Shown here: positions 36,709 to 55,312 of the stretch, piece by piece | How the letters are laid out: each line of letters begins with the position of its first letter | How positions within the stretch are numbered: position 1 is the stretch's first letter | Source: Phycisphaeraceae bacterium | GTDB taxonomy: Bacteria > Planctomycetota > Phycisphaerae > Phycisphaerales > Phycisphaeraceae | Assembly (NCBI GenBank): GCA_963674705.1 | Contig: OY771506.1 | Coordinates: forward strand, 2,080,001-2,144,000 | Direction of reading: 5' to 3' | DNA: 64,000 bases | Translations under genes and position numbers: made by a program | The notes under the pieces: generated by a model | Told to the model about the DNA's origin: nothing | The model's input: only the letters and a program-made list of their open reading frames with translations | The model's database searches: none

Positions 36709-36792
36709 TTCGTCGCGGCTATCAAAGGGTAACTGCCGAACGGCCCCAATGGTGATAATCGCTCGGGCGTGATCCGAACTGGAAACGTTCCT

Positions 36793-37060
36793 CTTTGAGC
36801 GCAACCTTCCCATAACCCGAGCCCATGTCTCTGCCCGGCGAAGAGAGACTTTCGGTCCAGACGGGCCGATCTGGCGGCCGGGACCGCTGATCCGGTTATG
36901 ATGTGGGGCGAATAAGAGACACGGATAGAATTAGCCGCCAGTCGTAAATTGAGGCCATAACTGGCGTAAAAACGAAAACGCCACCGAGATCTCTCGGCGG
37001 CGTTCTGCGTTAACCGTGGGGCCGGTTGGGTTTGCAACCGGCCGACTAATAGCGGGGGCA
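36793..37060. repeat. ~268-bp diverged direct repeat of 54981-55249 (tRNA-downstream module)
   Basis: Colinear by eye; both copies end in TAGCGGGGGCA and contain a minus-strand terminator-like hairpin (36977-37004 / 55166-55193). Confidence 0.9.
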
Positions 37061-37162
37061 CGGCTTGGTATCTGCACGCGACCGGACGGCGGCCTCTTCT
37101 GGCCGTTCGCGTGGGGGCCGGACGGCGTGATAGATACCTTCGCATAGTGTGCCTGGGACACG

Positions 37163-37576
37163 TTAAGCCTCTAGAAATCGGCCAATGCGATCTGTCAACT
37201 TGCCTACTTTGGTCGGTTTCGTCTGGCATTCCCAAATCACGAGCACATCCCATCCTTCACGTCTAAGGCGGCGTTGTACTTTTCGATCCCGTTTGACATT
37301 TGCCTCAAATTTCGATGACCAGAATGTCTTGCGTGTACTTGGCATTGACTTTCCTCGCCTACACGAATGGCGGTGCCAGAAGCACCCATGCACGAAAATA
37401 ACCTTTCTACGGCCCGCGAACACAAGGTCGGGTTTGCCTGGCAGGCGGTGATCATGCAATCGGTAGCGATAACCCATGGCATGAGTCAAACGTCGGACCA
37501 CAATCTCGGGCTTGGTGTCGGTCCCACGAATACGCGACATGATCTCACTACGACGAATTGAGGTCATTGTGTCCAT
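37163..37576 (-). CDS. vsr: Very short patch repair endonuclease
   Basis: 'MSRIRGTDTKPE', 'LPGKPDLVF', 'IFVHGCFWH.H', 'VIWEC'. Confidence 0.95.
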   Translation of the reverse strand: MDTMTSIRRSEIMSRIRGTDTKPEIVVRRLTHAMGYRYRLHDHRLPGKPDLVFAGRRKVIFVHGCFWHRHSCRRGKSMPSTRKTFWSSKFEANVKRDRKVQRRLRREGWDVLVIWECQTKPTKVGKLTDRIGRFLEA

Positions 37577-37601
37577 CTGTTCGCCACGATAAGCTATGTA
37601 A

Positions 37602-38411
37602 GTGGCTGATTCAACGAAACCATCAGGTGTCAACGATCTGGAGGCGATTAAAATCGCCAATTGGCTCCAGGCAGAATCGCGGATCGATAAGATCGGCTTG
37701 GCGATTCGCACCGCCATCGACTGGGTGATCGATGGTGCACGTACTAGACGGTTTGACTTGGATCAGGTTGAGCAAGGTGAAAAGCTGTACCTTGGCAATC
37801 GCGTTGAATACGAAGTTATTCATCAACTCGACCTGATAAAGAACAGTCAAGGCATTGATACTACGATCTGTGATTGTTTGGTTGATATCAAATTTTCGAT
37901 TGCTACAAGTTGGATGATACCACCTGAAGGCGTCGGTCATATCTGTCTATTGCTTTCTGCTGATGACCATAGATCAGTGTATTCGGTTGGGGTGCTGCGC
38001 GCACGGCCGGAATACCTGAATGCGCCAAACCGAGATGGGAAGCGGAGTATCAACAAAAAGAAGGGGTACTCACAAATTGAGTGGGTCACCCAGGATTCTG
38101 GTCTTCAAAAAAATTTCTTACTTCATCTCGAACCCGAAATCCGTGAACGAATACTTTCGGAAAGGAGTGGTCAGGCTAGAGTTACGCAGGCATTCCGCCT
38201 TGTGCTTGAAAGGCCGATTTCTGTTATTGCTTTGGATACTCTCGCCGTGCAACGCGACCCATCGAAGCGCGCCAGAGATGCAAGAAAGGCGCTTGCGAAA
38301 GAAGGTATTCGGGTTCTATGCGGACGATGGGAAGACGATAGAACCGAGGCGAGTAGATTAGGTATGCCCAAACTCAAAGTAGACGAGTGGATCTCTACTC
38401 GGCAGCGCTAA
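37602..38411 (+). CDS. NaeI-family type II restriction endonuclease
   Basis: 'EKLYLGNRVE', 'VDIKFS...WMIPPE', 'NRDGKR', 'SGQARV'; adjacent to a C5 methyltransferase and vsr. Confidence 0.75.
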   Translation: MADSTKPSGVNDLEAIKIANWLQAESRIDKIGLAIRTAIDWVIDGARTRRFDLDQVEQGEKLYLGNRVEYEVIHQLDLIKNSQGIDTTICDCLVDIKFSIATSWMIPPEGVGHICLLLSADDHRSVYSVGVLRARPEYLNAPNRDGKRSINKKKGYSQIEWVTQDSGLQKNFLLHLEPEIRERILSERSGQARVTQAFRLVLERPISVIALDTLAVQRDPSKRARDARKALAKEGIRVLCGRWEDDRTEASRLGMPKLKVDEWISTRQR

Positions 38412-39837
38412 CTAGTTGCATCTTTCTCGCACCCGCCAACAAGTTTGCAAGGTGTTTTCCAATAGCTTCTGCAAGTGGGATTGGCACGGCATTTCCGATT
38501 TGTTTCGCAACATTGATTTTAGTGCCACAGAATTGGAAGTCATCATCGAAGCCTTGAAGACGCGCAGCTTCGCGGTGTGTGATTGGACGGTCCGCCTCCG
38601 GGTGCAGGTATCGTCCCTTCTCCGGCTTGTAGAATTCGGTCCGTATTGTCACCGATGGGCGATCCCACCACAACCGACCGAATAAGTCAGTACCACCTTG
38701 GGTCTTTCGTTTCCAGCATTCAGGCGTGAGTTCGGGTGGTAAATCAAACCGATTACCTCCGGCAGGAATACATGCGTAGCGCTGCTTCGACATTTCGGTC
38801 GGATTTCGGCCAATATGCCAGTTCTTCCCGCTTGGTTTAAATGGCAGATCACCAATTGCATCTCGCACGGTTAGCCAAGCAGGTAGATCATGAGTCTGCA
38901 GCGTGCGACGTTCAGGATTAACGTGTGTCTGCAGCGGTTTGGTAGGACGCTCCCCCTTCATGCCGATGATGATTGCTCGTTTGCGAGTTTGCGGCGCGCC
39001 ATAGTCTGCCGAATTCAATACCCATGATGCTACGTTGTACCCTAGCGATTCAGCTTCGCGCTGAATTTCTATGAACTCTTGCGATTTCAAGAGTGGTGGT
39101 ACATTCTCCATGACAAACGCAATCGGGTTAGCGTCGCGGACCGCACGAAGGTAGTGCCGCCAAAGTTGCCGTCGTGGATCAAAGGGTACACGCTCGCCTA
39201 GATTACTGAAACCCTGACATGGCGGTCCCCCAGCTACAACATCTGCTTTGGGGAATTCTTTGATTTCTTCAATTGCGCACTGGGCAACCCGTTCCGTGAT
39301 GTTGGCGCGTAACGTATCAGACGCGTCGGGGCTCCATTCTACGGCTAGTTCGGTGCGGAACCCTGCACGTTTGAAACCGAGCGCGAGCCCACCACAACCG
39401 GCGAACAACTCGAGTACCGTAGGGCCATCCCCATCGAGGGGCTCATTCAATACCCCATCCCAATCGGTTTCTCGTAGCGCTACAGTATCAAAAGGGTAAA
39501 GCCGATATTCTCGTTTTCCGATTCGCTCCAATGCGAGCACATCGCCCGGCTGAATCTTATGGTGATCGAAAAACTCGCGCACCCAAGTCCGGGAGCGGAA
39601 CTCACGCCTGGGTTTACCCGACTGGGCATCTCTAGCAATGTCAGTTTCGATGATCTTACGAAGGCCATCAATGCGTATCTTGACCGGTCGGCCCGACTTG
39701 CCAGTAGCGAGACTGGGGGCACCAATGCAATCGTCCGGAAAGAAATCGTGGTGACCGGTGATGTAGACATGGCTGTTGCGCAGGTTCCCGGCTGTAACTC
39801 GGATTAACCGCTTTCTGTCTGCAACAGCACCGCTCAA
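38395..39837 (-). CDS. DNA (cytosine-5) methyltransferase with N-terminal extension
   Basis: FAGCGG, GGPPCQGFS, ENV, Q.R.R, REAARLQGF, QIGNAVP. Confidence 0.95.
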   Translation of the reverse strand: MSGAVADRKRLIRVTAGNLRNSHVYITGHHDFFPDDCIGAPSLATGKSGRPVKIRIDGLRKIIETDIARDAQSGKPRREFRSRTWVREFFDHHKIQPGDVLALERIGKREYRLYPFDTVALRETDWDGVLNEPLDGDGPTVLELFAGCGGLALGFKRAGFRTELAVEWSPDASDTLRANITERVAQCAIEEIKEFPKADVVAGGPPCQGFSNLGERVPFDPRRQLWRHYLRAVRDANPIAFVMENVPPLLKSQEFIEIQREAESLGYNVASWVLNSADYGAPQTRKRAIIIGMKGERPTKPLQTHVNPERRTLQTHDLPAWLTVRDAIGDLPFKPSGKNWHIGRNPTEMSKQRYACIPAGGNRFDLPPELTPECWKRKTQGGTDLFGRLWWDRPSVTIRTEFYKPEKGRYLHPEADRPITHREAARLQGFDDDFQFCGTKINVAKQIGNAVPIPLAEAIGKHLANLLAGARKMQLVSAAE

Positions 39838-40175
39838 ATTTTGCTCCTTCGCTCCAAAGGCCTTCTGGCAATGGTCTTATGGTATACACATTTGGGTATA
39901 ATGAAAAGTGGGAAACCCAAACATTTTACAAACACAGATCGAGCAACGAGTTATTGGCAAATATCTGTGAACGAACCATTCATAGATTTTATGGGAAGGC
40001 TTGTATTTTATGCCTTCAACCATTTCTAGATGATTGGTGACGATATCGGCGTGGTTGAGGTAGATCAACGACAGTGCTGATTATTTAGATTTCGATCTTA
40101 CGAATTACCCCTTGAAATGGAAATAAGGAGATAGTCGGGCACCGAGGCCCGGCCTAACCCTCCAAGGAGACCGCC

Positions 40176-40700
40176 GTGATGAGAATCGGACTGACGTTCG
40201 ACGAATACGTGGACCTGACGCTCAAGCCGCTCAAGGGTGCTGACAAAGCATTTCATAGGGGAGCCGAAACCCTCGTAGGGCAGATGTTCCCGATGACCCT
40301 GGGGGCGGCATCGAGCCACCTTCGGTCTCGCGGGTACGATTGCCGGCCCGAAATGCTCGAAGTGCTTGTTCAGAATGGGGTTGTGACGCCCACAGAAGGC
40401 GCGTGGACCCGGGCGGATGTGGACGCCGCCGCAGACCACTTCGAGGACTGCGAGATGTTCACGCCCTACGCCGCCATGTGCCAGACGCTTGGGTGCGGGT
40501 ACGCCGACTTCGAGCGTCCGCTCCGGGAGGCGGCTGAGCGGGAATCCGAGAAGTGGGGCCGGCGCATCCCCGATGATGACCAGTACTTCGTCATGCACCG
40601 CCAGCCACCCCGGGGCGGCGACAACGCCCGCCCGGCGATCATCACCTTCTCGCTGTGCGACGACATCCGGGAGAGGCTCGAGCGCGGCGAGGAGGTCTGA
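40176..40700 (+). CDS. Hypothetical protein, first gene of the satellite core operon
   Basis: AGGAG RBS; GC-rich codon usage; abuts the next gene. Confidence 0.7.
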   Translation: MMRIGLTFDEYVDLTLKPLKGADKAFHRGAETLVGQMFPMTLGAASSHLRSRGYDCRPEMLEVLVQNGVVTPTEGAWTRADVDAAADHFEDCEMFTPYAAMCQTLGCGYADFERPLREAAERESEKWGRRIPDDDQYFVMHRQPPRGGDNARPAIITFSLCDDIRERLERGEEV

Positions 40701-41276
40701 GTGGAATCCTCACCTTATGAATTGAAACTAACGGACGACCTTCTGGAATACGCCAGGAAGGTCGCCATCAAGGAGGCGCGCAAGTGCTGCGCGCCGCGCC
40801 ACGACTACAAAAACGTCGTTGGTGAGGCGGTTATGCAACTGATTAGGAAGCCATTGAAGTTTGATCCCTCGCGTGGTGCGAGCGAGAAGACCCTGATCTA
40901 CACCATCGTGAAGCGCGCCGTACTACGGTTTGCGGAGCGCGAGGCGAAGGAGGCGCGTAAGTTCAGGCAATTCCCCGAGCGGGTTGGAGCGGCTCAGGAT
41001 GGCGAGGATAACGAACCGGCGCAGAACCAGATCGGCGAGAGCCGGACAAAGGCGCTTAGACGTGGCCGGTGGACCCTGGATGACATGTTTAAGTACATCG
41101 ACAACGAAGACAGCCGCGCCCTGTGCAAGCTGGTCATCGAATGCGATGGCAACAATAGTGAAGCAGCAAGCAGACTCGGGGTATCTGAAGGCACCGTACG
41201 TTATCGCCTGAAACTCCTTGCCCCCAAACTACGTGCGGCCGGTTTCGACCCGTTTCCCGATGGAGAGGTGCCATGA
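40701..41276 (+). CDS. ECF sigma-like DNA-binding protein
   Basis: 'KFDPSRGAS..TLIY.IV'; HTH 'SEAASRLGVSEGTVRYRL'. Confidence 0.7.
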   Translation: MESSPYELKLTDDLLEYARKVAIKEARKCCAPRHDYKNVVGEAVMQLIRKPLKFDPSRGASEKTLIYTIVKRAVLRFAEREAKEARKFRQFPERVGAAQDGEDNEPAQNQIGESRTKALRRGRWTLDDMFKYIDNEDSRALCKLVIECDGNNSEAASRLGVSEGTVRYRLKLLAPKLRAAGFDPFPDGEVP

Positions 41277-43165
41277 GTATCGCGGTGACGAATGACAACA
41301 TGCTGTTGGCGGCACCCGAGGTCGAGATCGAAGCGGGTGCGGAGCGAACGGGTAAGCCGCGCATCAATATCGTCGCTTACACCGGCGGCGTGATGCGGGT
41401 GCCGGGCTGGGGTGATGTGGCCATCGACCTGACCGGGCTTGATGCGACAGGCCAGGTGCCGCTGCTAGCCGATCATGACGCACGCGTCAGCGGCGTCGTG
41501 GGACATGGGCAGGCAAACGTCGCGGATGGCCGATTGATGGTGGCCGGTGTGATGAGCGGCGCGGGCGAAGCGGCGCGTCAGATCGTTGAGATGACCACCG
41601 GCGGATTCTCATTTCAAGCATCGGTCGGCGTCGAACCGGTCGAGCACGAACGCGTGCAGGCGGGCGCAAAGGTACAGGTAAACGGTCGCATGCTGTCCTC
41701 GGCGAGGGGTTTTTCGCTGGTTAAGGTCGGGCGGCTCAGAGAAGTCAGTATTACGCCGTTGGGCGCAGACTCGGGTACGAGCGTCGCCATCGCGGCTTCA
41801 CAACGTAACACGGAAACGCAAGTCATGAGCACGGACGTTCAGAACACCGACGAACAAGCTATTCGCGCCGACGAACGGCAGCGTATTAATCAGATCGAAA
41901 GCCTCTGCGCCAGACCTAGCGGCGGCTGGGGCACCATGCAGCCGAAGGTTGATGCGCTGAAGGCCTCGGCCATCGCGGGTGAGATCAGTGCGCAGGACCT
42001 CTCTGCGGAACTGCTGAACATCCTGCGCGAATCTCGGCCCAAGGTCAGCACGTTCCAACCGACGCAGCCGGTGGGTGGTGTGGCCACCCTCGAAGCGGCC
42101 CTTCTCAAGCGGATGGGGTTGAGCGATCTGGGCGAGAAGGCCCTCGGCGCGATCGCGATGGAGCATGGCGAGCGGATCAAGGCGACGCACGCCCTGGATA
42201 TCTGCCGTGCCGCCCTGATGCTTGATGGTGCTGAGATCCCGCAGGGCCGTGAACAGATGGTGCGTGCGGCGCTCTCGACGTACTCGTTGCCGACGGCGCT
42301 GGGCAACCTGGCCAACAAGCTGCTGCTGGATGCTTACGACGAAGCGCCCGCGACGTGGCGGTCGTTCTGCTCGGTTCGGTCGGTCTCCGACTTCAAGCCG
42401 AACACCGCGATCCGTCCGAGCTTCACCGGCCAGCTGGAGACGGTTGCGCCGGGCGGCGAGATCAAGCACGCGACCGTTGGGGAATGGTTCACGCAGTTCC
42501 AGGCCGACACCTACGGCAAGGTCCTGAGCATCGACCGCCGCGACATCATCAATGATGACCTGGGCGTGTTCGATCAGAGCGCCCGGGCGTTCGGCCGCGC
42601 CGCGATGCGGAAGGTCAGCGACCTGGTGTACGCCACGCTGCTGGCCAATGCCGGCGCGTTCTTCTCGGCGGCCAACGGCAACTACATCTCGGGCGCGGAC
42701 ACGGCGCTGAGCTTCGATTCGTTGGCTCAGGCCATCCAGGCGATGATGCTGCAGCGCGATGACGAAGGCAACGACCTTGACCTGCGGCCGGCCACGCTGC
42801 TGGTGCCGCCGGGGCTTCAGCCTACGGCCAAAGCACTGCTGGAGTCTGAGTTCATCCAGCAGATCTCCGAGCGCATGCCCACCGGCAACTCGCTGCGGCG
42901 GGCGGTCAGCATCGAGGTCGAGCCGCGTCTGAGCAACACCGACAAGTTCAGCGCCGCCAGCGCCAAGCACTGGTATCTGTTCGCCAGCCCGAGCAACACG
43001 CCGATGGTCGTGGCGTTCCTCAACGGCCGGCAGCAGCCCACCGTCGAGTTCTTCGGCCTGGACCAGGACGTGAACAAGCTGGCGGTGAGCTGGCGGGTCT
43101 ACCACGACTTCGGGTCGGCGCTGGTCGATCCGCGTGCGGCGGTCCGCAGCAAGGGTGAAGCGTAG
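41273..43165 (+). CDS. Prohead protease-major capsid protein fusion (HK97 fold, Mu gpT-like)
   Basis: Protease-like 'AYTGG..PLLADHD..FQASVG..LREVS...GAD'; capsid 'ANKLLLDAY..VSDFK..GGEIK..TYGK..IDRRDIINDDL'. Confidence 0.85.
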   Translation: MSIAVTNDNMLLAAPEVEIEAGAERTGKPRINIVAYTGGVMRVPGWGDVAIDLTGLDATGQVPLLADHDARVSGVVGHGQANVADGRLMVAGVMSGAGEAARQIVEMTTGGFSFQASVGVEPVEHERVQAGAKVQVNGRMLSSARGFSLVKVGRLREVSITPLGADSGTSVAIAASQRNTETQVMSTDVQNTDEQAIRADERQRINQIESLCARPSGGWGTMQPKVDALKASAIAGEISAQDLSAELLNILRESRPKVSTFQPTQPVGGVATLEAALLKRMGLSDLGEKALGAIAMEHGERIKATHALDICRAALMLDGAEIPQGREQMVRAALSTYSLPTALGNLANKLLLDAYDEAPATWRSFCSVRSVSDFKPNTAIRPSFTGQLETVAPGGEIKHATVGEWFTQFQADTYGKVLSIDRRDIINDDLGVFDQSARAFGRAAMRKVSDLVYATLLANAGAFFSAANGNYISGADTALSFDSLAQAIQAMMLQRDDEGNDLDLRPATLLVPPGLQPTAKALLESEFIQQISERMPTGNSLRRAVSIEVEPRLSNTDKFSAASAKHWYLFASPSNTPMVVAFLNGRQQPTVEFFGLDQDVNKLAVSWRVYHDFGSALVDPRAAVRSKGEA

Positions 43166-43300
43166 TCGTTCAGCGGGCGGGGGCACACTCCTGGGCACTC
43201 GCCCGCTTTAAACCATTCTCACACCGATCGAATTGACGCCTACGGGTAAATGAATTGGGGGCCGCGCTTGTGGTCTGCGCACAGGTAATGGAGTGCCGGT

Positions 43301-43486
43301 ATGACAAATGCCCTGAAAGTACATGGGCCACCGCAGCGTGTGGGCAGTATCGAGATGCGTATGGCAATTGCTGGTTCGACGCACGAATCGGAGCAGCGTT
43401 GGTCCCGGCGCTCAGAAGCCATCGCTGCTTGGCTGCTGTCTGAATGGAAACGCCAGCAATCGCAGGGTAGCAGGGAGGCCTCCTGA
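43301..43486 (+). CDS. Small hypothetical protein
   Basis: GGAG RBS; TGATG coupling to the primase gene. Confidence 0.55.
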   Translation: MTNALKVHGPPQRVGSIEMRMAIAGSTHESEQRWSRRSEAIAAWLLSEWKRQQSQGSREAS

Positions 43487-45918
43487 TGTTTGATGCACGA
43501 CGCTGCGATGACCATGTTCCTCAATGCCTGCGAGACACGCCGCAGTGGGTGTTGTGGAAGTTGGTGGAGCGCGGCGGTAAGCCGACGAAGGTGCCGGTGG
43601 CCCCGAACACGGGCTGGAACGCGTCATCGACTGATCCCGCAACTTGGGGCACGTACAAGCAGGCTACCTTCCGCGCGATGGGGTCGGAAACGTACCGGGG
43701 TGTGGGCTTCGTGTTCACCGAAGCCGACCCCTACTGCGGCATCGATCTGGACGACTGCATTGTTGACGGGCAACTGACGCCCGAAGCTCGTGAGATCATT
43801 GATTCGTTTCCCACGTACACCGAGGTGTCGCCCAGCGGCAAGGGCGTGAAGCTGTTCCTGCGGGGCCGTAAGCCGGAACACGCTGGCTGCGCGACCGGCA
43901 AGATCGAGGGCATGGCCCGTATCGAGGTGTACGACAGCGGGCGGTTCTTCACCGTGACCGGTTGTCAACTCGATGGTACGCCACGTGAGGTGGCTGACTG
44001 CCAGCAGCAGCTCGAGGAGCTGTGCGAACGGCTGTGGCCCAAGCCGCAGGCCAGGCCGGTTGCGGCGTCCACGCCATCACCGGCGCACCACATGGGCAGC
44101 ACCGAACAGGACATGCCTGCACGCGAGCGCCGGTGCATGAACTATATCGAGAGATGCCCCGACGCCATCAGTGGGAACGGCGGTCATAACGCCACGCTGC
44201 GGGCCGCTTGCGAGTGCTACCGTTTCGGCCTGGACGAAACCGCCGCCTGGAGCGTGATGCAGTGGTTCAACGACCGCAAGACCGGCGGCGAGCGCTGGAC
44301 GGATTGCGAACTGAATCACAAGCTCGATGCGGCGAGGAAGAAGGTTGACCAGGCCGGAGAGTTTGCCGTGAGGTTGGTGGATGTTCACGTTGATGCCGCC
44401 GAGATGAGCACGCAGCAGGTCGCGGCGCTGATGACCGATGTGGGTAACGCCGCCCGGCTCGTGCAGCGCTACGGCAACCGCATCCGGTACTGCTACGGAC
44501 CTGAGCAGTGGCTCGTGTGGGACGGTCGGCGCTGGAAGATCGACGAACGGGGCATGATCGTGCGGTTGTGCAAGAAGACGGCGCTGGCGATCCTCGATGA
44601 GGCGAAGAAGGTAGAGGGTGATGCGCAGGACGAATTGATCCGGTGGGCCATGTCCAGCCAGAAGCGGGATCGGCTTACCGCGATGGCAGCATTGGCTCAG
44701 CCCGACGTGGCGGTCGGCCCGGATGACCTCGACGCTGATCCTTGGGCGTTCAACGTGCTCAACGGCACGATTGACCTGCGCACCGGCGAGATCGAACCGC
44801 ATAACCAGACTGATCTGATCACCAAGCTTGCCCCGGTCGAGTTCGATCCCGACGCCACGTGCCCGCGGTTCGATGCGTTCCTCGAGCGGACATTCGCCGG
44901 TGATGTTGACCTCATCCGCTTCGTGCAGCGCTGGCACGGTCATTGCCTAAGCGCCGACATCCGCGAGCAGTACCTGCCCATCTATCATGGCGAAGGCAAC
45001 AACGGCAAGAGCGTGCTGCTGGACACACTCAGCGCGGTGATGGGCGACTACGCCGGTGAAGCCCCGCCCGACCTGGTCACGGTTCGCAAGCACCCCGAGC
45101 ATCCGACCGAGATCGCCGACCTGCTGGGCAAACGGTTAGTCATCGCCAGCGAAACGGAGCGCGACGCCGAACTGCGCCTGCAGCTCATCAAGCGACTGAC
45201 CGGTAACGCCCGGCTCAAAGCCCGACGCATGCGGCAGGACTACTTCGAGTTTGGCCGCACCCACAAGATGATCCTCGTGACCAACAACCGCCCGACGATC
45301 AAAGAGGACACCGAGGCGGCCTGGCGACGCCTGCGGTTGGTGCCGTTCGATGTCATCATCCCGAAGGACGAACGCGATCCTGATCTGATCCGCAAGCTAA
45401 GCCACGAATACTCCGGCATCCTGTCATGGATGGTGTGTGGCTGCGTCGATTGGCTGCGTGAGGGCCTGACCGAGCCGGACGCAGTGACGATCGCGACCGA
45501 AGCGTATCGCGGTGCCGCCAATAGCCTCGATGCGTTCCTGATTGAACGGTGCAGCATGGCCGACGGGTTGATGTGCGCCACGTCCGATCTGCTGGCTGCG
45601 TACGGCGAATGGTGCGCTCAGCACCGGCGCGTTCCGCTACAAGGTAAGGCGCTGGCTGCAGCATTGAAGGCACAGGGATGCATCCCGACGAAGGTCAGCG
45701 GGCAGCGCCATTGGATTGGTTTGGACCTCGATGATGATCCGCGTGGACAGAACGGGCGCAATGGACGCCAGGTGCCCGTTAACGCCTACGTGAGGGGCAA
45801 TACTCCGGTTAACGGGCATCAGGCGTCCAATCCGTCCAATGCGTCCAGTACCCAGGCGATGGCGCTGGATGCGGACGAAGGAAGCAATGGCTTATCACCA
45901 GAGGAATCAACGGATTAG
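43486..45918 (+). CDS. Prim-pol fused to P4/D5-type SF3 helicase
   Basis: 'GIDLDDC', 'YTEVSPSGKG', 'IEVY..GRFFTVTG'; 'TDVGNA.RL'; 'GEGNNGKS'; 'ASE'; 'TNNRP'; 'WRRL..VPF'. Confidence 0.9.
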   Translation: MFDARRCDDHVPQCLRDTPQWVLWKLVERGGKPTKVPVAPNTGWNASSTDPATWGTYKQATFRAMGSETYRGVGFVFTEADPYCGIDLDDCIVDGQLTPEAREIIDSFPTYTEVSPSGKGVKLFLRGRKPEHAGCATGKIEGMARIEVYDSGRFFTVTGCQLDGTPREVADCQQQLEELCERLWPKPQARPVAASTPSPAHHMGSTEQDMPARERRCMNYIERCPDAISGNGGHNATLRAACECYRFGLDETAAWSVMQWFNDRKTGGERWTDCELNHKLDAARKKVDQAGEFAVRLVDVHVDAAEMSTQQVAALMTDVGNAARLVQRYGNRIRYCYGPEQWLVWDGRRWKIDERGMIVRLCKKTALAILDEAKKVEGDAQDELIRWAMSSQKRDRLTAMAALAQPDVAVGPDDLDADPWAFNVLNGTIDLRTGEIEPHNQTDLITKLAPVEFDPDATCPRFDAFLERTFAGDVDLIRFVQRWHGHCLSADIREQYLPIYHGEGNNGKSVLLDTLSAVMGDYAGEAPPDLVTVRKHPEHPTEIADLLGKRLVIASETERDAELRLQLIKRLTGNARLKARRMRQDYFEFGRTHKMILVTNNRPTIKEDTEAAWRRLRLVPFDVIIPKDERDPDLIRKLSHEYSGILSWMVCGCVDWLREGLTEPDAVTIATEAYRGAANSLDAFLIERCSMADGLMCATSDLLAAYGEWCAQHRRVPLQGKALAAALKAQGCIPTKVSGQRHWIGLDLDDDPRGQNGRNGRQVPVNAYVRGNTPVNGHQASNPSNASSTQAMALDADEGSNGLSPEESTD
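45762..45829. repeat. 22-bp inverted repeat with flanking TGGAC/GTCCA repeats (candidate origin)
   Basis: tggacgccaggtgcccgttaac / gttaacgggcatcaggcgtcca, 20/22 match. Confidence 0.7.
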
Positions 45919-46288
45919 CGGCGATCTGTCCCGGCTTGCGCCGTCGTGGCGGACGGTGGCCCGTCGTGGACGGAATCACCGAGCTTGGCCAATGTTCGGC
46001 GCGACAAACCGAACGCGACACGGCCCAACGTCGGGCCACAGGGCGGCGGATAGGTACTTCCAGCGCCCGGTCTGCCTCGTGATGGCGGCGGGAACGGTCG
46101 CGCCATACCTTTGATTCGCTTGCAGATGAAAAACGGCGCGTTCAAAAGAAACTCTGTCCTCCATGGCGACTGGTTCCGCCGCCATCACGGAAATGGCCGC
46201 AATTCCGAGGACCCATGGGCAGACTTGATGTTCCTCGCGAAACAAGCCCTCATGGTCTGGTAGATACCCACGACCGGAGACCGCGACC

Positions 46289-48121
46289 ATGACTACCACG
46301 ACCACCATCCCCGCCGTCGCTTACCTTCGCCGCTCGTCCGACAAGCAGGAACAGAGCATCGGCGATCAACGCACCGAGATCGTGCGCTATGCGGATGACA
46401 ACGGCTATACCGTCATCCGCGAGTACGTGGACGATGCGATCAGCGGCACGAGCGCCGAGGAGCGCCCGGGCTTTCAGCGGATGATCACCGATGCCGAAGC
46501 GGGCCAGTTCAAGGCTGTGATCGTCTGGAACAGCGACCGGTTCAGCCGGGGCGACGTTACCGAAACCGAGCATTACCGCTATCTGCTTCGTCGCGCCGGC
46601 GTCATGCTCGTTTCCGTGACCGAAGACTACCTGCACCGCGAGAGCTTCGACGGAGACATCTTGCGGACGGTCAAGCAGTTCCAGAATCGGCAGTTCTCCA
46701 TATCGCTATCGCAGAACACGCTGCGCGGCCAGATCTCGGCGGTGCAGGCTGAATCCGATCCCGGCAGGCCATGCCCATACGGGTACGACCGCGAGATCGT
46801 GGGGCCCGACGGGCAGGTGCTCTACTGCGTTCGGTTCTGCCCGGGTCGGGTACGCGAGGTACTCGACGCCAATGGCAACTTGACCGCCACATACCGCAAG
46901 GGCCAATCGCTCCGTAAGCCCGGCAAGGAATGCAAGGGCAGGATGGTGTTGTCGGCACCCGACCGTGTGCAGGTCGTCAAAGACATCTTCGCCGGATGCC
47001 TAGACGGTGTGGGATTCAAAGGCATCGCGGACCGGCTCAACGCCCAAGGCATCCCAAGCCCCAGGGGTGGCCTGTGGAACTTCACCACGATCAAAGCCAT
47101 CCTGATGAATCCGATCTATCGTGGCGATCTGGTTTGGAACCGGCGAACCGAGAGCAAGTTCTATTCGGTTCGGAAGGGACGAGCGGACAAGATGAAGTCG
47201 CGCGACATGGCCGACCGCCCGGTGCTGATGCCCGAAGATGAATGGATCGTCGTGCAGGACGCGGTGCCCGCCATCGTTAGCCGCGAGGATTGGGATCGCG
47301 CGCAGCTCATGGTCATCCGCAGGCGGAAGGCCAAGGGCGGGCAGGGCAAGCAGCGAGACCGGTGGCTTCTATCCGGCGTACTTGTATGCGGGCACTGCGG
47401 CCAGCCGTTCTGGGGCGAACGAAAACGGAAAGGGCGCATCCCGGGTAGAGCCGAGGTCGCATGCAACTACTACACATGTGCCGGGCGTCGGCGATACGGA
47501 AAGAGCACGTGCCCGACATCGGCCAGCGTGAAAGCCGATGAGTTGGAGGCGTGGGTACTCGGCAAGCTCGGCGGCCTGATCTTAAATGATGTCGGTGGCG
47601 TCGATGAGGCGGTTGATCGGTTCGTTGCAGCCACGCTCGGCATGGCGCGGGGTGGCACCGATACCAACCGGATCGTCCGCGAGATCGCAGAGATCGATCA
47701 AACGGTGGCATCGCTAACCAGCAGCCTCGATCCGGCAAACCTGGCGATGCTCAACGACCGGCTGACGCAGATACGAACTCGCCGCGAGCACCTCGAGGCC
47801 GAACTCCGATCCGCCAGGCTGGACGAGCGCCGTCTTGACGCCGACCATCTTCGCCGATGGGTGTACCGGCAGATCGAGTCCTTGGCGGCGATAATCGACG
47901 GCCGGCGCGACCCGCAGCTGCGGAGAACCATGGCGAGCTACATCGACGAGATTCGCATCTTCCCCGAAACCAAGACGGGCGAACTGATTCTCAATAGCAA
48001 CATTTGGGGCCTGATCGGCACCGGGGACGAGGCCCCCAATGAAAAAGACCGCCCGGTTGGGCGGTCGTGTGCAGATACAATAGCGGGGGCAGGATTCGAA
48101 CCTGCGACCTCCGGGTTATGA
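46289..48121 (+). CDS. Large serine recombinase
   Basis: 'AYLRRSSDKQ', 'DAISGT...RPGF', 'DRFSR', 'NPIYRG', Zn-ribbon 'LLSGVLVCGHCG', coiled coil. Confidence 0.95.
   Translation: MTTTTTIPAVAYLRRSSDKQEQSIGDQRTEIVRYADDNGYTVIREYVDDAISGTSAEERPGFQRMITDAEAGQFKAVIVWNSDRFSRGDVTETEHYRYLLRRAGVMLVSVTEDYLHRESFDGDILRTVKQFQNRQFSISLSQNTLRGQISAVQAESDPGRPCPYGYDREIVGPDGQVLYCVRFCPGRVREVLDANGNLTATYRKGQSLRKPGKECKGRMVLSAPDRVQVVKDIFAGCLDGVGFKGIADRLNAQGIPSPRGGLWNFTTIKAILMNPIYRGDLVWNRRTESKFYSVRKGRADKMKSRDMADRPVLMPEDEWIVVQDAVPAIVSREDWDRAQLMVIRRRKAKGGQGKQRDRWLLSGVLVCGHCGQPFWGERKRKGRIPGRAEVACNYYTCAGRRRYGKSTCPTSASVKADELEAWVLGKLGGLILNDVGGVDEAVDRFVAATLGMARGGTDTNRIVREIAEIDQTVASLTSSLDPANLAMLNDRLTQIRTRREHLEAELRSARLDERRLDADHLRRWVYRQIESLAAIIDGRRDPQLRRTMASYIDEIRIFPETKTGELILNSNIWGLIGTGDEAPNEKDRPVGRSCADTIAGAGFEPATSGL
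48042..48066 (-). terminator. Minus-strand terminator inside the integrase 3' end
   Basis: gaccgccc-ggtt-gggcggtc preceded by A5 on the + strand; downstream of the tRNA fragment. Confidence 0.65.
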
Positions 48122-48123
48122 GC
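48081..48123 (-). repeat. 43-bp duplicate of the tRNA-fMet 3' half (att site)
   Basis: Identical to 55239-55281. Confidence 0.95.
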
Positions 48124-48396
48124 GTCTAAAACGGCAAAAACCCAGACGCTTGTCTTTGAGGCATTTACAGCAATCGCAACGGTTTACGTCCGTTGCGCTG
48201 GGTGCCCATCATAGCCATTTTTGCCATGTTTTCCAGCTCATTTGGCGCAGATTCTGGCGCAATAAAACGGACTCGAGTCAGCGTTTCTCCGGGTGTTCAC
48301 ACCGACGATGAGTTGTATGGCAAAAGAACTGGTATTGTATTTGAGATGTGAGAGAGCTATTCAGCACTCGATATTACTGCGTTCTGCGGGAAACGG

Positions 48397-49248
48397 ATGG
48401 AGGTAACAGTGAAATATATCGTCATTATTACTGTGACTGTTATGTCGTCGGTCCTAACAGCGAGAGCTGAAAATACCGAAAAACCAGACTTTGAGTCAAT
48501 GGATAGGCAGACAATGATTGCTCTATTGGAAGAGCAATACGAAGAAATAAAACAATTAAAGAATATGGTTGAAAAACTAGTAGAGGCTAATTTAGATGAA
48601 AAGGAAACAATTGATCAATCATTTTTAATCGGAAGTGTAAAAATTGTTATACCTGCACCGTTAGATGGTTTTGTCGAAATTGGAGAAATAAATCGCGACA
48701 TTATGGAAGTATTTGTTCCTGATACTAATAAGTTAGTATGTGGATTTGTAATGCCGGATGACCTGGCGCGTATGAATGAAATGGACGAAGACCTAGTCTT
48801 GGATAGATATGGATTAGTGCAAATATATCGTGAAACTGCAGATCAAGAGATGAGTGAGCAAGATTTTGAGAAGATAGCACTAATGTTCGACGAACTAATG
48901 AAGGGTGAATTTGGGTCTATTCTAGATAAAGCCAGTAATGATCTGAATCAAAGACTTGAAGATGCGGGTATTGATGCTCAGGCAAGTATTAAAAAGCCTG
49001 TCAACCTAGGGAAGTTATTTACAATCAAAGATGCTTCTGGTTATGGTTTTATTATGCCGTATGACTTAAAAATGGATGGTGACGATGAGAGTTTAACTAT
49101 GGCTGCTGGTATATCTATCCTCCGGGTGAAGAATCGATTCATGTTCTTATACTTATTTGATACATATGAGAATGCGGAAAGTATCAAATGGATTGATAGC
49201 ACCAGTGAAAGTTGGTGTAAAGCGATATTAAAGGCTAATAATCAATAG
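48397..49248 (+). CDS. Secreted hypothetical protein, AT-rich
   Basis: Signal peptide ending 'ARA'; short coiled coil. Confidence 0.75.
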   Translation: MEVTVKYIVIITVTVMSSVLTARAENTEKPDFESMDRQTMIALLEEQYEEIKQLKNMVEKLVEANLDEKETIDQSFLIGSVKIVIPAPLDGFVEIGEINRDIMEVFVPDTNKLVCGFVMPDDLARMNEMDEDLVLDRYGLVQIYRETADQEMSEQDFEKIALMFDELMKGEFGSILDKASNDLNQRLEDAGIDAQASIKKPVNLGKLFTIKDASGYGFIMPYDLKMDGDDESLTMAAGISILRVKNRFMFLYLFDTYENAESIKWIDSTSESWCKAILKANNQ

Positions 49249-49422
49249 AGTTGTTGTTAAGATGGTGCTAGGTATGGAAGAAAATTGATTATTAGTATTG
49301 AAAAGTTAATGCCTTTATGTGACAAAGTTTCTACTTCCGGGGGTAGCCCGGGGTACAGGGGGCGGCAATGAGCACACCTGTACGTATGATGCGGTACGAC
49401 CAGTTGTTCTGGGGATCATCTC

Positions 49423-50391
49423 ATGAGCGATAAGAAAGCGCGTTTGAGGAATTGGGCAGCATCCGTCCCACCTTTGCTCGCATATAGTGCAATCAATATT
49501 GCTTCGTCGGCAGTAGATGAATACTACATCCTCGAAGAACTACGACAACGAATTGATTCACCATTACTGATGCCGCTTCCGCCAGTAAAGGTATGGATGG
49601 GTTACTACCGTAAACACAGATTCCTGAGTCCCGTTATCGATATGCACCTCGGCCTAGATGGCGAAGAATGGCTAACTGCTCTTAATTTCGCTGGTGCTTT
49701 AAGAGAGCATGACAAACTCAGTCGCGAGGAACTATTGAGCTGGTGGAATGGAATGACTCAAGAGGATAGACGGAAGTTTGTACTAGCTACGGCTGAATTA
49801 CATGAATGTATAAGAAAAATTGTTGAAGCTCAGATAACGGCTCTTGCTGTTGGTGAGGTTGGAGAGCCGAACGAAGTAAAAAGCTTAGTATCTACGCCAG
49901 AGATACAATTTATTATTCGAGTCCTTGTTCCGTGCTGGGCGAAGTGCCAAATGTATCCGGGTGAGTTGTTGAGGGCAGCTAGATCGGGTGAATTGCTGGC
50001 TCTAGAGCAACTGCTTGCAATCGACAAATCCATAGTAGCAGATCCAAAGATACACGAACAAATACACCAGACTGCTAGCGGTTCGAACAAAGCAAGGTTT
50101 GAAAGAATCGCTAATGCTTTTAGAGCCCCCACGATTGGCCGTATCAGCCTGAAAAGCGTTAAGCTGTTATCAGCTGCATTAGTAGGACAGTCTGCACATG
50201 AATTGGGACACCCTCTTACTGAGCCGCAAATACGAGAGTTGTTTGATTCGATAGCTGCAATTGAGGGGAAACTTCGCGATACTGACCTACCGAAGAGCTC
50301 AGAAGCGTTATCAAAGGCCCTGCAACGTAAGAAGCCAGAATGGGCTCCGATGATCAGGCGGACAAAAGTTGTTGCCGAAATGTCCGGGTAA
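49423..50391 (+). CDS. Hypothetical protein
   Basis: 322-aa ORF upstream of rep. Confidence 0.65.
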   Translation: MSDKKARLRNWAASVPPLLAYSAINIASSAVDEYYILEELRQRIDSPLLMPLPPVKVWMGYYRKHRFLSPVIDMHLGLDGEEWLTALNFAGALREHDKLSREELLSWWNGMTQEDRRKFVLATAELHECIRKIVEAQITALAVGEVGEPNEVKSLVSTPEIQFIIRVLVPCWAKCQMYPGELLRAARSGELLALEQLLAIDKSIVADPKIHEQIHQTASGSNKARFERIANAFRAPTIGRISLKSVKLLSAALVGQSAHELGHPLTEPQIRELFDSIAAIEGKLRDTDLPKSSEALSKALQRKKPEWAPMIRRTKVVAEMSG

Positions 50392-50420
50392 TCTGAAAAC
50401 TGCCTCCTAGTCTGGGGGGC

Positions 50421-51638
50421 ATGAAAAACAACACACTAAATCGAGATGTAACGGAAAAGACCGAGCGGGGGGCGGAGCAGGGGCCGCCCCCGCCGGCCTG
50501 TGGTTCAAACATGGGGGACTCTGTAACACCCCATGTTCTAATGCCAATACCTGGAGACTGGCGTTATTTGATATCTGGGATTGATACCCTAGACCTCGGT
50601 ATCTATGTCGACTGGGGGATTCACTTTCAGGCTATTCAGCTGCAGCTAGAGCATAACCGGGATAAGTCTATTGTCGGCGAGACTGCGATCTGGCGCCATC
50701 CTGTGATCGGTGAGGCTCTTGTCCGATCAAGTGGGAAGCGCAATTACAGATTCATGGTAGAGCTTCCTGGCGTTGTTCTGTGGATCGCCAATGTAGACAA
50801 GCCGAATGGCTTCCCGAATGTCTATGTCAGTCCTAGAGCCCGGTCCCTCTGGATCAATGGTGTTAATAACACGCTCGAATATATCACCAGCGTGATAGAA
50901 GAGCTTGGTGGGGTCGTTCAGCAGGTGCAGGTAAGTCGATGTGACCTGGCAGCCGACTTTTACCTGGAAGAGCCTTTGTCGACCGAGTTCGTTAAATCGG
51001 GCTTAGTCAGCAAGTGTAGGACATCAAGCCAGTATGAGACTGCGGGGCAGCTTGAGACTTTCTATGTCGGGCGTGGCAAGGCTCCTATTCAGGCACGTAT
51101 CTATAACAAGCTTCTGCAGGTCATGTCCAAGCCAGAATCTTTGTTCTTCCTGCCGCTTTGGGGTGGTCCGGTTAAGGCCTGGCGTGTGGAGTTTCAACTT
51201 CGACGTACCGCCTTAAGACAATTCCAGATTGATACAGTTGATGACCTGCAGGCCATGTCTGGGGCGTTGTGGAAGTATCTCACAGAAGATTGGCTGTCCC
51301 TGCGTCTGGATGATTCAAACAAAACAAACCGTCGTACAGTCCATCCCTGGTGGCAGGCGGTCGCGGATTGTGCGGAGACATTCGGGCCGGTGTTCGACCT
51401 GGATCGGCGGGAGAACAAGATACCCGTGGCCGATGTGGATTGGTATGTCTCGCATGTCTCGGGGTGTCTGGTTTCCTTTGCTGCTCGTTTAGGTCTACCG
51501 ACTGTCAATAAAGCTTTGGCAGAGCTGGATGAGCGTGTAGCCAATCACTGGGGTGCTAACAAGTGGGATGATGAGTATCGCAAGCGTCGTATCCAGCAGG
51601 GCGAAGCTGACGAGGGGGAATGTGATGTCCCGTTCTGA
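50421..51638 (+). CDS. Rep_trans-like rolling-circle replication initiator/relaxase
   Basis: 'SRCDLAAD', 'ETFYVG', 'RIYNK', 'WRVEFQLRR'. Confidence 0.8.
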   Translation: MKNNTLNRDVTEKTERGAEQGPPPPACGSNMGDSVTPHVLMPIPGDWRYLISGIDTLDLGIYVDWGIHFQAIQLQLEHNRDKSIVGETAIWRHPVIGEALVRSSGKRNYRFMVELPGVVLWIANVDKPNGFPNVYVSPRARSLWINGVNNTLEYITSVIEELGGVVQQVQVSRCDLAADFYLEEPLSTEFVKSGLVSKCRTSSQYETAGQLETFYVGRGKAPIQARIYNKLLQVMSKPESLFFLPLWGGPVKAWRVEFQLRRTALRQFQIDTVDDLQAMSGALWKYLTEDWLSLRLDDSNKTNRRTVHPWWQAVADCAETFGPVFDLDRRENKIPVADVDWYVSHVSGCLVSFAARLGLPTVNKALAELDERVANHWGANKWDDEYRKRRIQQGEADEGECDVPF

Positions 51639-51831
51639 ATCTATTGAAGTGGAATCGCCTTACCTGTCGCCTAAGGAGCTGGCCCAGCGCTGGCGGTGTT
51701 CAAGGTCGAGTGTGGATCGTATCGCCAGGCGAGCGGGGTTGTCTCGTCTGTGCCTTGGCGAAGGTGCTAACGGGATTGTTCGTTTCGACAGGAAGGAGGT
51801 TGAGGCCTATGAAGCAACCCGGCGGGTATGA
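51625..51831 (+). CDS. Excisionase-like HTH protein
   Basis: 'YLSPKELAQRWRCSRSSV...VRFDRKEVEAY'; overlaps the rep stop. Confidence 0.8.
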   Translation: MSRSESIEVESPYLSPKELAQRWRCSRSSVDRIARRAGLSRLCLGEGANGIVRFDRKEVEAYEATRRV

Positions 51832-51899
51832 GTGATCCGCCGATCAATTGATTCTGCTCTACCAATGGCTGCCCCGGAGATGCAAGTCCGCCGGGGTGG

Positions 51900-54164
51900 T
51901 TATTTTTGACGTTCAAAGAGGTCCTTAATTGCTGAAAGGGTGCTATCTTGAGCAGGTGAAGTGTGGAACTCTTCTCGTTGCGGAATTGCATCTGGAGTAA
52001 AATCGTCTGAGTGTCGATCGAATACTATGTCATAATCGTACGCGTCTAATATGGAATCTATTTGCTCCTGACTTAGCTCAAATTCCATGTCATCGAGTAT
52101 AGACATTAGGTAGTCTTGGACAGCCTCTGATGCATCGTCAGGTTTGTCTAAGTAGTCGTAAATAATGTCATTAAAGTAGACATCTTGATTAATGTCTTCC
52201 TCAAAATTCGTAGCTACAAATTCACATAATTCATCAGTTAAATCAGCTCTGGCTTCAGCATCATGTATTGAGCCAATGATGCGATAAAGCGTGTTTGTAT
52301 GCTCTACTTCTTTCGCTGATGGCATTGCTGATTTGAGGTGTTGCATGATGATAGCATCTTCGATCTGTTCCCCCAATTCCAATGCCCATAGTATCAAAGA
52401 TGACGCATACTCATCATATTTGTATGTAACTTGGTTGTATGCAATTGAGTTACATTTACTGCGAACAATCGCCAAATGATCCGCACCCGATAGTTTTGCT
52501 CGCGCCAAGCTGCCAAGTGCAACGAAGTAGTCGGCAGACTCGGGACGGTTATCATTGGTCATCTTCATATCTACTAGTTTTTTAATTACCAATATAAGAT
52601 CTGTTGCCTTTGAGTCTTGGACATTGAACAGATCTCCCAATGTATTGATAGATTCCGGCGTGTCTAGAGCAAGGTAATACTGGGAAAGGGCGTCTGGGTC
52701 ATTGATTGTACGTTTAAGGATGAAATCGCCTACTGCCGGATTGAATAAGTCGAAGGACACGGAATCTGACTTGGATTTACGGTTAAGCATGGCACCCGTA
52801 ACTAGTCTTGTGGCTTGGTTGTATTTGTAACGAATATCTGTATCTCTTGCCAAATCCAATGATAGTGCGAGATGGCGAAAGGCACTGAACAGTCGATCAT
52901 CATGAATCGTGCCACCGTTTAGGACGGTGAGACAGACCAATAATTGTGCTTCAGTGGATATCTGGTCGTCATACACCTTTGACCAGATCTCACTAGGATT
53001 ATCAAGGTTTGTTGTTATGTAATTCCAATAAGCAGGGGGGGCAATGTCGCGAATCTTGTAGGCATCAGTTATAAACGCGATAAGCCGTGGAATATAGTTT
53101 CTATGTTTGATGATTTCGAGATACTTATCGTCTTTGTAAAGCTCATCAATATATTCAGTTTCCAAATCACTGAACCAGATATGGTTGTAAAGTATCTTAG
53201 CCTTTTCAATGTCTGACAGGCTGGCGACTTGAATTTCATACTCGTTGCGTTCGACATTCTCGTTTCGGTAGGATTCGCTTAGTTGTTTCTCTCGATTGAG
53301 AATATGCGTTCGCGATGTCAGTAGGAATCGAGTATTTGGGCTTCGTGAGACGGTTTTGATGAAAGCCATTGTGGCGGAATCTTCAAATGACCGCAGCGCT
53401 TCTAGGTAGTTGGTGCCAAGAAAATCGTCAAAATAGAATACTTGCTTCTTCTTAGGGGTAAACACCTCCTCGGCTTCATCTATAGATTTGTGGATGACAT
53501 AAGCATTGAAACCCTTACCGGAGTAGTAGAAAAATAATTGATTTGCAAGTGTAGTTTTGCCAATTCCAGGATCACCGGAAATGATAAGAGTGTGAAGTGA
53601 TTCTATTTGCTTCAAGGCGGCTTCATGATGTCTGGTTTGTACGTACTTAGCTGCTGCGTCGGATATCTCCCGAATTGTGTACTCTGAACGTGCGATTATT
53701 CCAGCATTGAGTATTGTTTGAAGGACTGTAGTGCTGGCAAACCACAGTTTGTAGTGACGTTGTTCGATATCGGGTGAATTGGCGATGAGAGTATTAAGGT
53801 CTTCATTACCAAGTATGTCGGATTCGGATTTTATATAGGGGTCGAATATTTTCTTTATTCGTTTTTTGTTAGAACGACTTAGCGGAAGACAGGTGCAAAA
53901 TATATAGCGAGGGCAGTTGAGTTTCTTTGCCTTTTTGGCCTCTTCGGGAAGGCTGCGAATTAACGCCGCCAGTCCAGCATTCGGCCAGTGTTTACATTGG
54001 ATTATTACTTCGGAGTTGTCTGTAGAAAAAAAACGGCCGTCAACGCCAGAGTCTTTACCCGGTTTGAACCGTTCGACCGTTGCGCCTTCACGAATTGAGA
54101 GAAGATCAGCAACAAGGTGTTCAAATTCTTTATCATTGAGGGTATGGAAGTCGTAATCAGTCAT
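51900..54164 (-). CDS. Mrr-like nuclease fused to STAND-type NTPase (putative defence protein)
   Basis: 'EFEHLVADLL...D.GVD...IIQCKH'; Walker A 'GDPGIGKT'; Walker B 'FYFDDFLG'; 'LLTSR'. Confidence 0.8.
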   Translation of the reverse strand: MTDYDFHTLNDKEFEHLVADLLSIREGATVERFKPGKDSGVDGRFFSTDNSEVIIQCKHWPNAGLAALIRSLPEEAKKAKKLNCPRYIFCTCLPLSRSNKKRIKKIFDPYIKSESDILGNEDLNTLIANSPDIEQRHYKLWFASTTVLQTILNAGIIARSEYTIREISDAAAKYVQTRHHEAALKQIESLHTLIISGDPGIGKTTLANQLFFYYSGKGFNAYVIHKSIDEAEEVFTPKKKQVFYFDDFLGTNYLEALRSFEDSATMAFIKTVSRSPNTRFLLTSRTHILNREKQLSESYRNENVERNEYEIQVASLSDIEKAKILYNHIWFSDLETEYIDELYKDDKYLEIIKHRNYIPRLIAFITDAYKIRDIAPPAYWNYITTNLDNPSEIWSKVYDDQISTEAQLLVCLTVLNGGTIHDDRLFSAFRHLALSLDLARDTDIRYKYNQATRLVTGAMLNRKSKSDSVSFDLFNPAVGDFILKRTINDPDALSQYYLALDTPESINTLGDLFNVQDSKATDLILVIKKLVDMKMTNDNRPESADYFVALGSLARAKLSGADHLAIVRSKCNSIAYNQVTYKYDEYASSLILWALELGEQIEDAIIMQHLKSAMPSAKEVEHTNTLYRIIGSIHDAEARADLTDELCEFVATNFEEDINQDVYFNDIIYDYLDKPDDASEAVQDYLMSILDDMEFELSQEQIDSILDAYDYDIVFDRHSDDFTPDAIPQREEFHTSPAQDSTLSAIKDLFERQK

Positions 54165-54860
54165 TATTGCCTCGCACAAATATTGGCGACGATTGCACTT
54201 TTATGGAAGTCGATGTCAATATGCATTTGCTCAGAAATCAAACTTGTATAATGGCGGCGGCAAATCTCGGGTGAATTTCCCATCAATGCAGCAGTTTTTT
54301 GAAGACTCAAGCCAGATTGTCCAAGGTGGCTTCCAAATGTATGTCGATAATCAAGGCACGACCAAATCAAATCATGTTCGCAATTCGCACTGCGAAGACC
54401 TTGTGAAAACCCGTCCGGGTCCCACCACTTCCCCATCGGGCTGGGGGAAGAACCAACCAAAGTCAGAAGCCGGTGGGATGTACTTATCCAGGTATCCCCG
54501 TAGTGCCTGGCTGATCGGCACCGCACGATTGCGTTTAGTCTTGGGCTGCCAGAAGCGGCCATTGATGGTCTTTGCCCGGACTCGTATCAAACCGTTACCC
54601 CCATTGCGTCGACTGAGGTCGATGTCGTTGTGTGTGAGCCAGAAAAGTTCTTCCCGCCGCAACCCGGCGTAAATATGTGTCGCGACCATTGTCTGCAATT
54701 GGGGCTTGAATCGCAAGGCAAAAAGCTACCCGTCCGTCTGCAAGTGTCAGAAAGCGGATTTCGGGCGCCCGCTCGGCGTAAGGCTTAACCTTGGTGTTGT
54801 TGGGAAGCCTGACGTTCTGCGTCTGAACGGCCCATTTGTAGATCCGCTGGAAGATCGGCG
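54164..54860 (-). pseudogene. Tyrosine integrase, frameshifted and truncated
   Basis: 'YAGLRREEL...PKTKRNRAVPI' and 'YRHTFGS...LMGNS...RRHY' lie in different frames; N-terminus decayed; 5' limit approximate. Confidence 0.8.
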
Positions 54861-55238
54861 ATAGTGATTGGCGATCTAGGACTGACCAACCTCACAAAGA
54901 GACCTGTCTATGCAAACCATCGCGCCGGGATCCCGTTTGCCATAACCGGAGGGTGATGATTCCGTACTCAACTTCTTCCACTTCGAGCGCAACCTCCCCA
55001 TAACCCGAGCCTCTGTCTCTGCCCGTCGAAGAGAGACTTTTGGCCGAGACGGTACGATTTGGTGGTCGGAACGGCCGATTCGGTTATGGCGTTGGGCGGA
55101 CGAGAGATACGGATCGAATTGGCGGCCAGCCGTAAATTGTGGCCAGAACTGGCGTAAAAAGCGAAAACGCCGCTGAGGTTTCTCAGCGGCGTTCGCCGTT
55201 AACGGGTGGGTCGGTCAGTTGTGTAACCGAACCATAAG

Positions 55239-55312
<74 letters not shown>

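Follow-up and report, generated by a model that had tools for sequence, protein, structure and literature searches.

A large serine recombinase of a satellite-like planctomycetal element has attP within its gene and a conserved C-terminal tail encoded only by the rejoined form

In the ssrA-islands of Dehalococcoides, the 3' end of the gene for the large serine recombinase DsiB lies over the att site at the end of a structural RNA gene and the stop codon lies outside the island, and DsiB has been proposed to be fully functional only when it is carried on the circle or lies behind a tandem island (McMurdie et al. 2011, PMC3146451). Myxophage Mx8 has attP inside int, and on integration the gene acquires another 3' end, which alters the behaviour of the enzyme without inactivating it (PMC6070905, PMC4383910). 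In mycobacteriophage BPs, attP lies in the repressor gene and integration removes a C-terminal degradation tag (PMC3694055). Serine integrases were, as of 2014, not known to target tRNA genes according to the available text of PMC4383910.

We analysed a 64,000-nucleotide stretch of the genome of a Phycisphaeraceae bacterium (the window), in which the original prediction had placed attP inside a serine recombinase gene. Like DsiB, the window integrase is a large serine recombinase whose gene runs over att at a structural RNA gene to a stop codon outside the element. DsiB targets tmRNA and is accompanied by a second small recombinase, DsiA, whereas the window element targets tRNA-Met and its integrase is the one serine recombinase match in the whole genome. 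The available text on DsiB calls the C-termini divergent and presents no conserved circle-side tail, in contrast to the conserved motif and the capsid gene of the window family. With Mx8 Int, the window integrase shares an attP in the gene and a 3' end that integration renews; Mx8 Int is the experimentally tested tyrosine recombinase of a full phage, whereas the window enzyme is a serine recombinase of a satellite-like element. The tail that is replaced in Mx8 is also much longer. As in BPs, attP lies in a coding sequence and a C-terminal piece is lost on integration, but BPs splits its repressor whereas the window element splits its integrase, and what is conserved in the window family is not a terminal tag. 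Mx8 Int and DsiB are therefore closer analogues than BPs.

The observation behind the original prediction was confirmed and all its coordinates hold. Both copies of the 13-bp att core and the two inverted attP arms were found (Table 1). In the 5.54-Mb genome the exact core occurs only at these two positions, identity between them stops at the core edges, and chance matches with at most one mismatch amounted to 0.08 in shuffled sequence. The attP rejoined in silico has a single clear centre of symmetry, which falls after core position 10 and has 20 of 27 positions symmetric, where other centres give 3-10; the rejoined attB reaches a maximum of 13. We infer GG as the crossover dinucleotide, at 37057-37058 in the distal copy and at 48088-48089 on the integrase side. 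Among related elements described below, attP was more symmetric (8-16 of 18 positions) than attB (2-7) in nine out of nine.

The rejoined sequence supports the location of attP within the integrase gene, 10 codons ahead of the integrated stop. The circle-form ORF would comprise 601 + 28 = 629 aa and stop at 37145-37147. Since the insertion site is inside the recombinase gene, insertion replaces the 28-residue end by nine residues of antisense tRNA. The crossover is thus within the ORF and integration alters the C-terminus, as in Mx8 and DsiB, and the free and inserted elements probably encode different isoforms of the enzyme with residues 1-601 in common.

Table 1. Positions of the att sites, genes and tRNA sequences in the window
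Feature	Coordinates	Strand	Evidence or remark
Distal att core, junction of host arm and P' arm	37048..37060	+	sequence match
28-aa attP-form C-terminal tail and stop	37061..37147	+	separated from integrase while integrated
attP P' arm	37068..37084	+	16/17 complementary to P arm
Tail motif F-x-W-G-x-x-G-V	37106..37129	+	beyond att arm
Vsr very-short-patch endonuclease, cargo	37163..37717	-	PF03852
NaeI-like restriction endonuclease, cargo	37602..38411	+	PF09126
C5 cytosine methyltransferase, cargo	38395..39837	-	PF00145
174-aa ORF without known family	40176..40700	+	in 5/7 other elements
Sigma-70-like HTH protein	40701..41276	+	in 3/7 other elements
Prohead protease/major capsid fusion	41273..43165	+	in all 10 rebuilt elements
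61-aa ORF, candidate RDF or accessory	43301..43486	+	in 9/10 elements; no family match
Primase-helicase, P4-like	43486..45918	+	D5_N
Large serine recombinase, integrated isoform, 610 aa	46289..48121	+	residues 602-610 and stop from antisense tRNA
Terminator-like hairpin and T run on tRNA strand	48047..48066	-	inside integrase gene, overlaps P arm
attP P arm	48062..48078	+	within integrase gene
att core, integrase-side copy	48079..48091	+	sequence match
Displaced 3' half of tRNA-Met, 43 bp	48081..48123	-	identical to 55239-55281; source of host arm and integrated stop
Second element, 7.1 kb, between first element and tRNA	48124..55238		bounded by 43-bp repeat
Intact tRNA-Met(CAT)	55238..55312	-	

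The original prediction had overlooked that what adjoins the integrase is a displaced 3' half of the tRNA. A distance of 7 kb, taken up by the second element, separates the serine element from the intact tRNA-Met. The anticodon stem of the intact tRNA has three G-C pairs and its first base is unpaired, and by hallmarks of this kind we take it to be the initiator type. The second element carries a fragmentary integrase (PHROG 1/216), presumably of the tyrosine type, together with a Rep_trans protein, an excisionase-like HTH protein and an Mrr-nSTAND3 protein that is probably the product of a defence gene. In the simplest order of events, the serine element would have arrived first and would then have been displaced by the second element. 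The latter would also have duplicated the tRNA half, so that the integrase still has its host arm and stop codon in place. The left flank (36800-37060) resembles the DNA beside the intact tRNA at 75-83% and also the tRNA flank of one same-genus genome. About 260 bp with a terminal terminator-like hairpin are present twice (36800-37047 and 54988-55237, 75-83% identity) and again beside tRNA-Met in G892, with shorter matches at the far att sites of two other loci (L138 and L141); this repeated flank may be the terminus of an older element family. The genome also has about 30 tRNA genes arrayed on one strand (G000:C1:622407-634804), and the window has two related rve-type transposase genes (23263-24381 and 34206-35093), the second of them interrupted N-terminally.

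The element spans 37061-48091 (11.0 kb) and encodes a capsid protein. Its integrase has resolvase (PF00239), recombinase (PF07508) and Zn-ribbon (PF13408) domains in this order, all above cut-off, and S16 and four Cys are invariant in alignment A1. Family searches detected neither terminase nor portal among the ORFs scanned in the element. A size of approximately 10-15 kb is one criterion for phage satellites. In its size, integrase, primase-helicase and head gene, and in having no tail genes, the element agrees with capsid-encoding satellites, and by its gene content it is a satellite-like integrative element of Planctomycetota. A limited literature search found no description of such a family of 10-12 kb with a protease-capsid fusion and variable cargo in Planctomycetota. 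One IMG/VR contig (L175:4161-11906) has a capsid fusion matching at 82% and a similar small ORF, combined with another replicase, a recombinase of 35% identity and a tRNA-Val, which suggests that elements exchange modules.

A search for homologous regions returned 92 proteins, from Phycisphaerae where named, many of which end in tRNA-antisense peptides. At integrase identities of at least 57%, 42 distinct junctions terminate in tRNA sequence; 19 are of the Met type and the other 23 have a Pro-type core, and at two of the latter ARAGORN calls tRNA-Pro. The integrated tails vary in length and sequence with the tRNA target, as would be expected of filler. The integrase was absent from the six same-genus genomes searched (E<=1e-150). 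At several further loci (L017/L141, L153, L067 and L011), the junction core is altered and leads into a hairpin and T run, not into tRNA; we read these integrases as having a different or displaced target.

To rebuild circle forms, the far att site was sought upstream by DNA alone, as a match to core and arm. Among the 18 distinct loci that extend at least 9.5 kb upstream, 8 yielded it; no far site was detected in the other ten, for most of which less than 12 kb of upstream sequence was available and for three 18-20 kb. Three genomes added later gave a far site in one and none in two. With the window included, ten elements of 10.3-11.7 kb were rebuilt, all with a capsid gene and with integrases 56-84% identical. 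They use two tRNA targets, Met and Pro-type, which separate on the tree. Since the ten are kin, they may represent perhaps five or six lineages. Nine pass a threshold, set post hoc, of at least 9/10 for the core and at least 9/18 for the arm, and one of these (L155) was fetched after the motif described below had been defined; L015 scores lower (8 and 8), and its tail was already known. Weaker candidates (core 8) lacked the motif and were taken as chance matches. For a distant recombinase, two positions separated by 1.6 kb qualify as candidate far att sites, with similar short tails (L146:10312 and 11908).

The circle-form tails of the homologues are not random in sequence, in line with the original prediction; they share a conserved in-frame motif. 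F-x-W is present in the integrase frame in all ten rebuilt tails (nine of nine at threshold, plus L015), and F-x-W-x-x-x-G in eight. The chance of F-x-W is 0.78% per site, and the other five frames gave it once in 50. It is common to elements targeting tRNA-Met and Pro-type tRNA. In the ten elements it lies 45-126 nt from the crossover, in frame every time, and the linker ahead of it varies widely in length. Conservation by codon position is 0.73/0.79/0.60, lowest at the third, for an alignment window anchored on the motif. A profile search found five further F-x-W tails, and three natural ORFs (P0061, P0075 and P0206) read through into the same tail. Distant recombinases carry other tails, so the motif is specific to the subfamily of the window integrase. 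Translation of the motif requires the circle or a tandem array, yet its frame is kept throughout the rebuilt elements, which implies selection on the circle isoform, and the pattern of conservation shows the circle-only tail to behave as a selected peptide. Separate expression of the tail while integrated was considered and is unsupported: the open stretch upstream ranges from 6 to over 100 codons, with no common start.

The end of the integrase gene also has roles as nucleic acid. By a simple test, a terminator-like hairpin is present at 27 of 42 close junctions, and because of this hairpin the D-R-P-x-G-R-S motif that homologues have just before the core is best seen as a nucleic-acid feature. 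If the conserved letters of the tail were likewise a DNA or RNA signal, such as an extended binding site, the peptide would be a by-product, and the R-P of the tail does lie within the P' arm. However, a DNA site need not keep frame, and F-x-W keeps it at all its distances from the crossover, with variable third positions. We regard this explanation of the motif as highly improbable.

The termini of the tails bear on the BPs-type switch to which the original prediction had likened this locus. A degradation tag lost on integration has the BPs precedent (PMC3694055), and the host tmRNA tag ends in AA. The ending -AA occurs in two of the ten rebuilt tails, in two of the five tails found by profile and in a relic tail copy (L103), against a background of 3.2% of long host frames (66/2056). 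A second tail family with an aromatic F-W (L013, L069, L074, L110, P0029 and P0035) ends in -AA in four of six and is the better candidate for a degradation tag. In the F-x-W tails, however, -AA is missing from eight of ten, the window tail ends in -FA, and the invariant part is the internal F-x-W, not the terminus. The stop follows 9-10 residues after W in seven tails, but three extend 15-24 residues beyond it. A degron as the conserved function is thus not borne out and is improbable as the main role of the tail; a degradation tag may be a secondary feature. The relic in L103 (1527-1610) is a second F-x-W tail copy, in the same frame after the first.

The shape of the tail was examined in an AlphaFold2 model of P0061, a natural homologue in the attP form (mean pLDDT 82.7). 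The model has a disordered linker at 577-612 (pLDDT <50) and a strand at 615-620 over F-x-W, in a block of pLDDT 70 in which the tail is covered by only two or three alignment rows. Solved recombinases align with the model to about residue 575-587 (one row to 609), the best match being SPbeta (Z 19.4, rmsd 6.8, 417 aligned). Since the solved folds end there, the canonical fold is complete in the integrated isoform, and the tail comes in addition to it. SPbeta SprA, Bxb1, LI/A118 and phiC31 resemble the window integrase in domain order, in a Zn ribbon with an inserted coiled coil and in a short symmetric attP (PMC11722253), but have no aligned counterpart of the linker and F-x-W strand. The motif is thus predicted to be a beta-strand beyond the known fold; docking on the enzyme and pairing with a short strand at 629-631 would both be compatible with the model. 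A profile search gave no solved relative of the tail or of the 61-aa ORF (best E 0.94), and an atlas search gave only unnamed clusters, below 0.9.

An addition to an enzyme that is complete without it could be a real but minor structural feature whose swap has no regulatory effect. The attP site would then lie in the gene for compactness, with the gene end doubling as att arm and tRNA terminator. The full canonical fold of the integrated form, the DNA and RNA roles that the gene end already serves with its hairpin, and the variable linker before the motif are all consistent with this. Against it, the motif stays in frame down to 56% integrase identity and across two tRNA targets, and we consider it unlikely.

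From the conservation of the motif, the model and the analogues, we tentatively favour a reading in which the tailed form would be the more active integrase and integration would turn the enzyme down; we put its probability at just under one half. The large serine recombinase would recombine at GG in the acceptor-stem end of tRNA-Met. The circle isoform would carry an appendage made of a flexible linker followed by an aromatic beta-strand or hairpin (F-x-W-G-x-x-G), which would pack onto the enzyme or a partner and render the circle form fully active. Much as in Mx8, integration would then turn the enzyme down and so stabilise the inserted state, and excision would rely on the short form, probably assisted by an accessory protein. 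A bolder proposal, that the F-x-W strand docks at the RDF site, that integration itself yields an excision-biased or silenced enzyme and that tandem neighbours lend tails, seems to us rather unlikely.

The original prediction had also stated that no obvious RDF gene is present. Family searches agree in that no known RDF family was detected, but the 61-aa ORF, although without a family or structure match, is conserved and is a candidate RDF or accessory protein; RDFs have no common fold (PMC11795197). This bears on a further explanation, in which the tail would be a built-in directionality switch that occupies or shields the hinge between DBD2 and the coiled coil, so that the tailed enzyme integrates and the tail-less enzyme excises without an RDF. 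Known RDFs act at the DBD2-coiled-coil junction (PMC11722253, PMC11795197), in the P0061 model a long linker joins the tail to DBD2, and the element is without a known RDF family. Yet a conventional RDF could be encoded by the 61-aa ORF. A resident enzyme able to excise would also destabilise the element, and no excision products were seen, which is a weak argument for the reasons given below. We judge such a switch to be distinctly unlikely.

In three public contig sets from one study, no circle joint or empty-site joint was found, and one public contig is continuous over 36200-48109. Contigs drop rare forms, and these may also be the source of the assembly, so the absence of a circle joint carries little weight. 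In IMG/VR, a query with the integrase protein for the free attP form gave no relative, an alignment query gave two partial matches, and two attP patterns gave 0 and 1 matches, the one being unrelated. The capsid query returned two contigs whose recombinase is a different one, of 35% identity. Tail reading also occurs on the chromosome in two tandem arrays (L013:11875 and L015:987), where the recombinase gene lying upstream continues into the tail sequence of the element that follows. This occurs even across subfamilies 24-28% identical and gives chromosomal chimeric isoforms.

Our literature search, which covered openly available main texts, found no report of tRNA-targeting serine recombinases with a conserved tail specific to the attP form, and the available texts of PMC10083194, PMC13626063, PMC10654092 and bioRxiv 2025.09.16.676606 make no mention of one. 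As far as sequence can tell, the conserved tail strengthens the published speculation on DsiB. The directionality of large serine recombinases is attributed to separate RDFs, which are hard to find, and a conserved appendage confined to the excised form would offer a second route of control. Since genes mined from integrated copies carry the tRNA-derived end, recombinase screens may be testing the wrong isoform.
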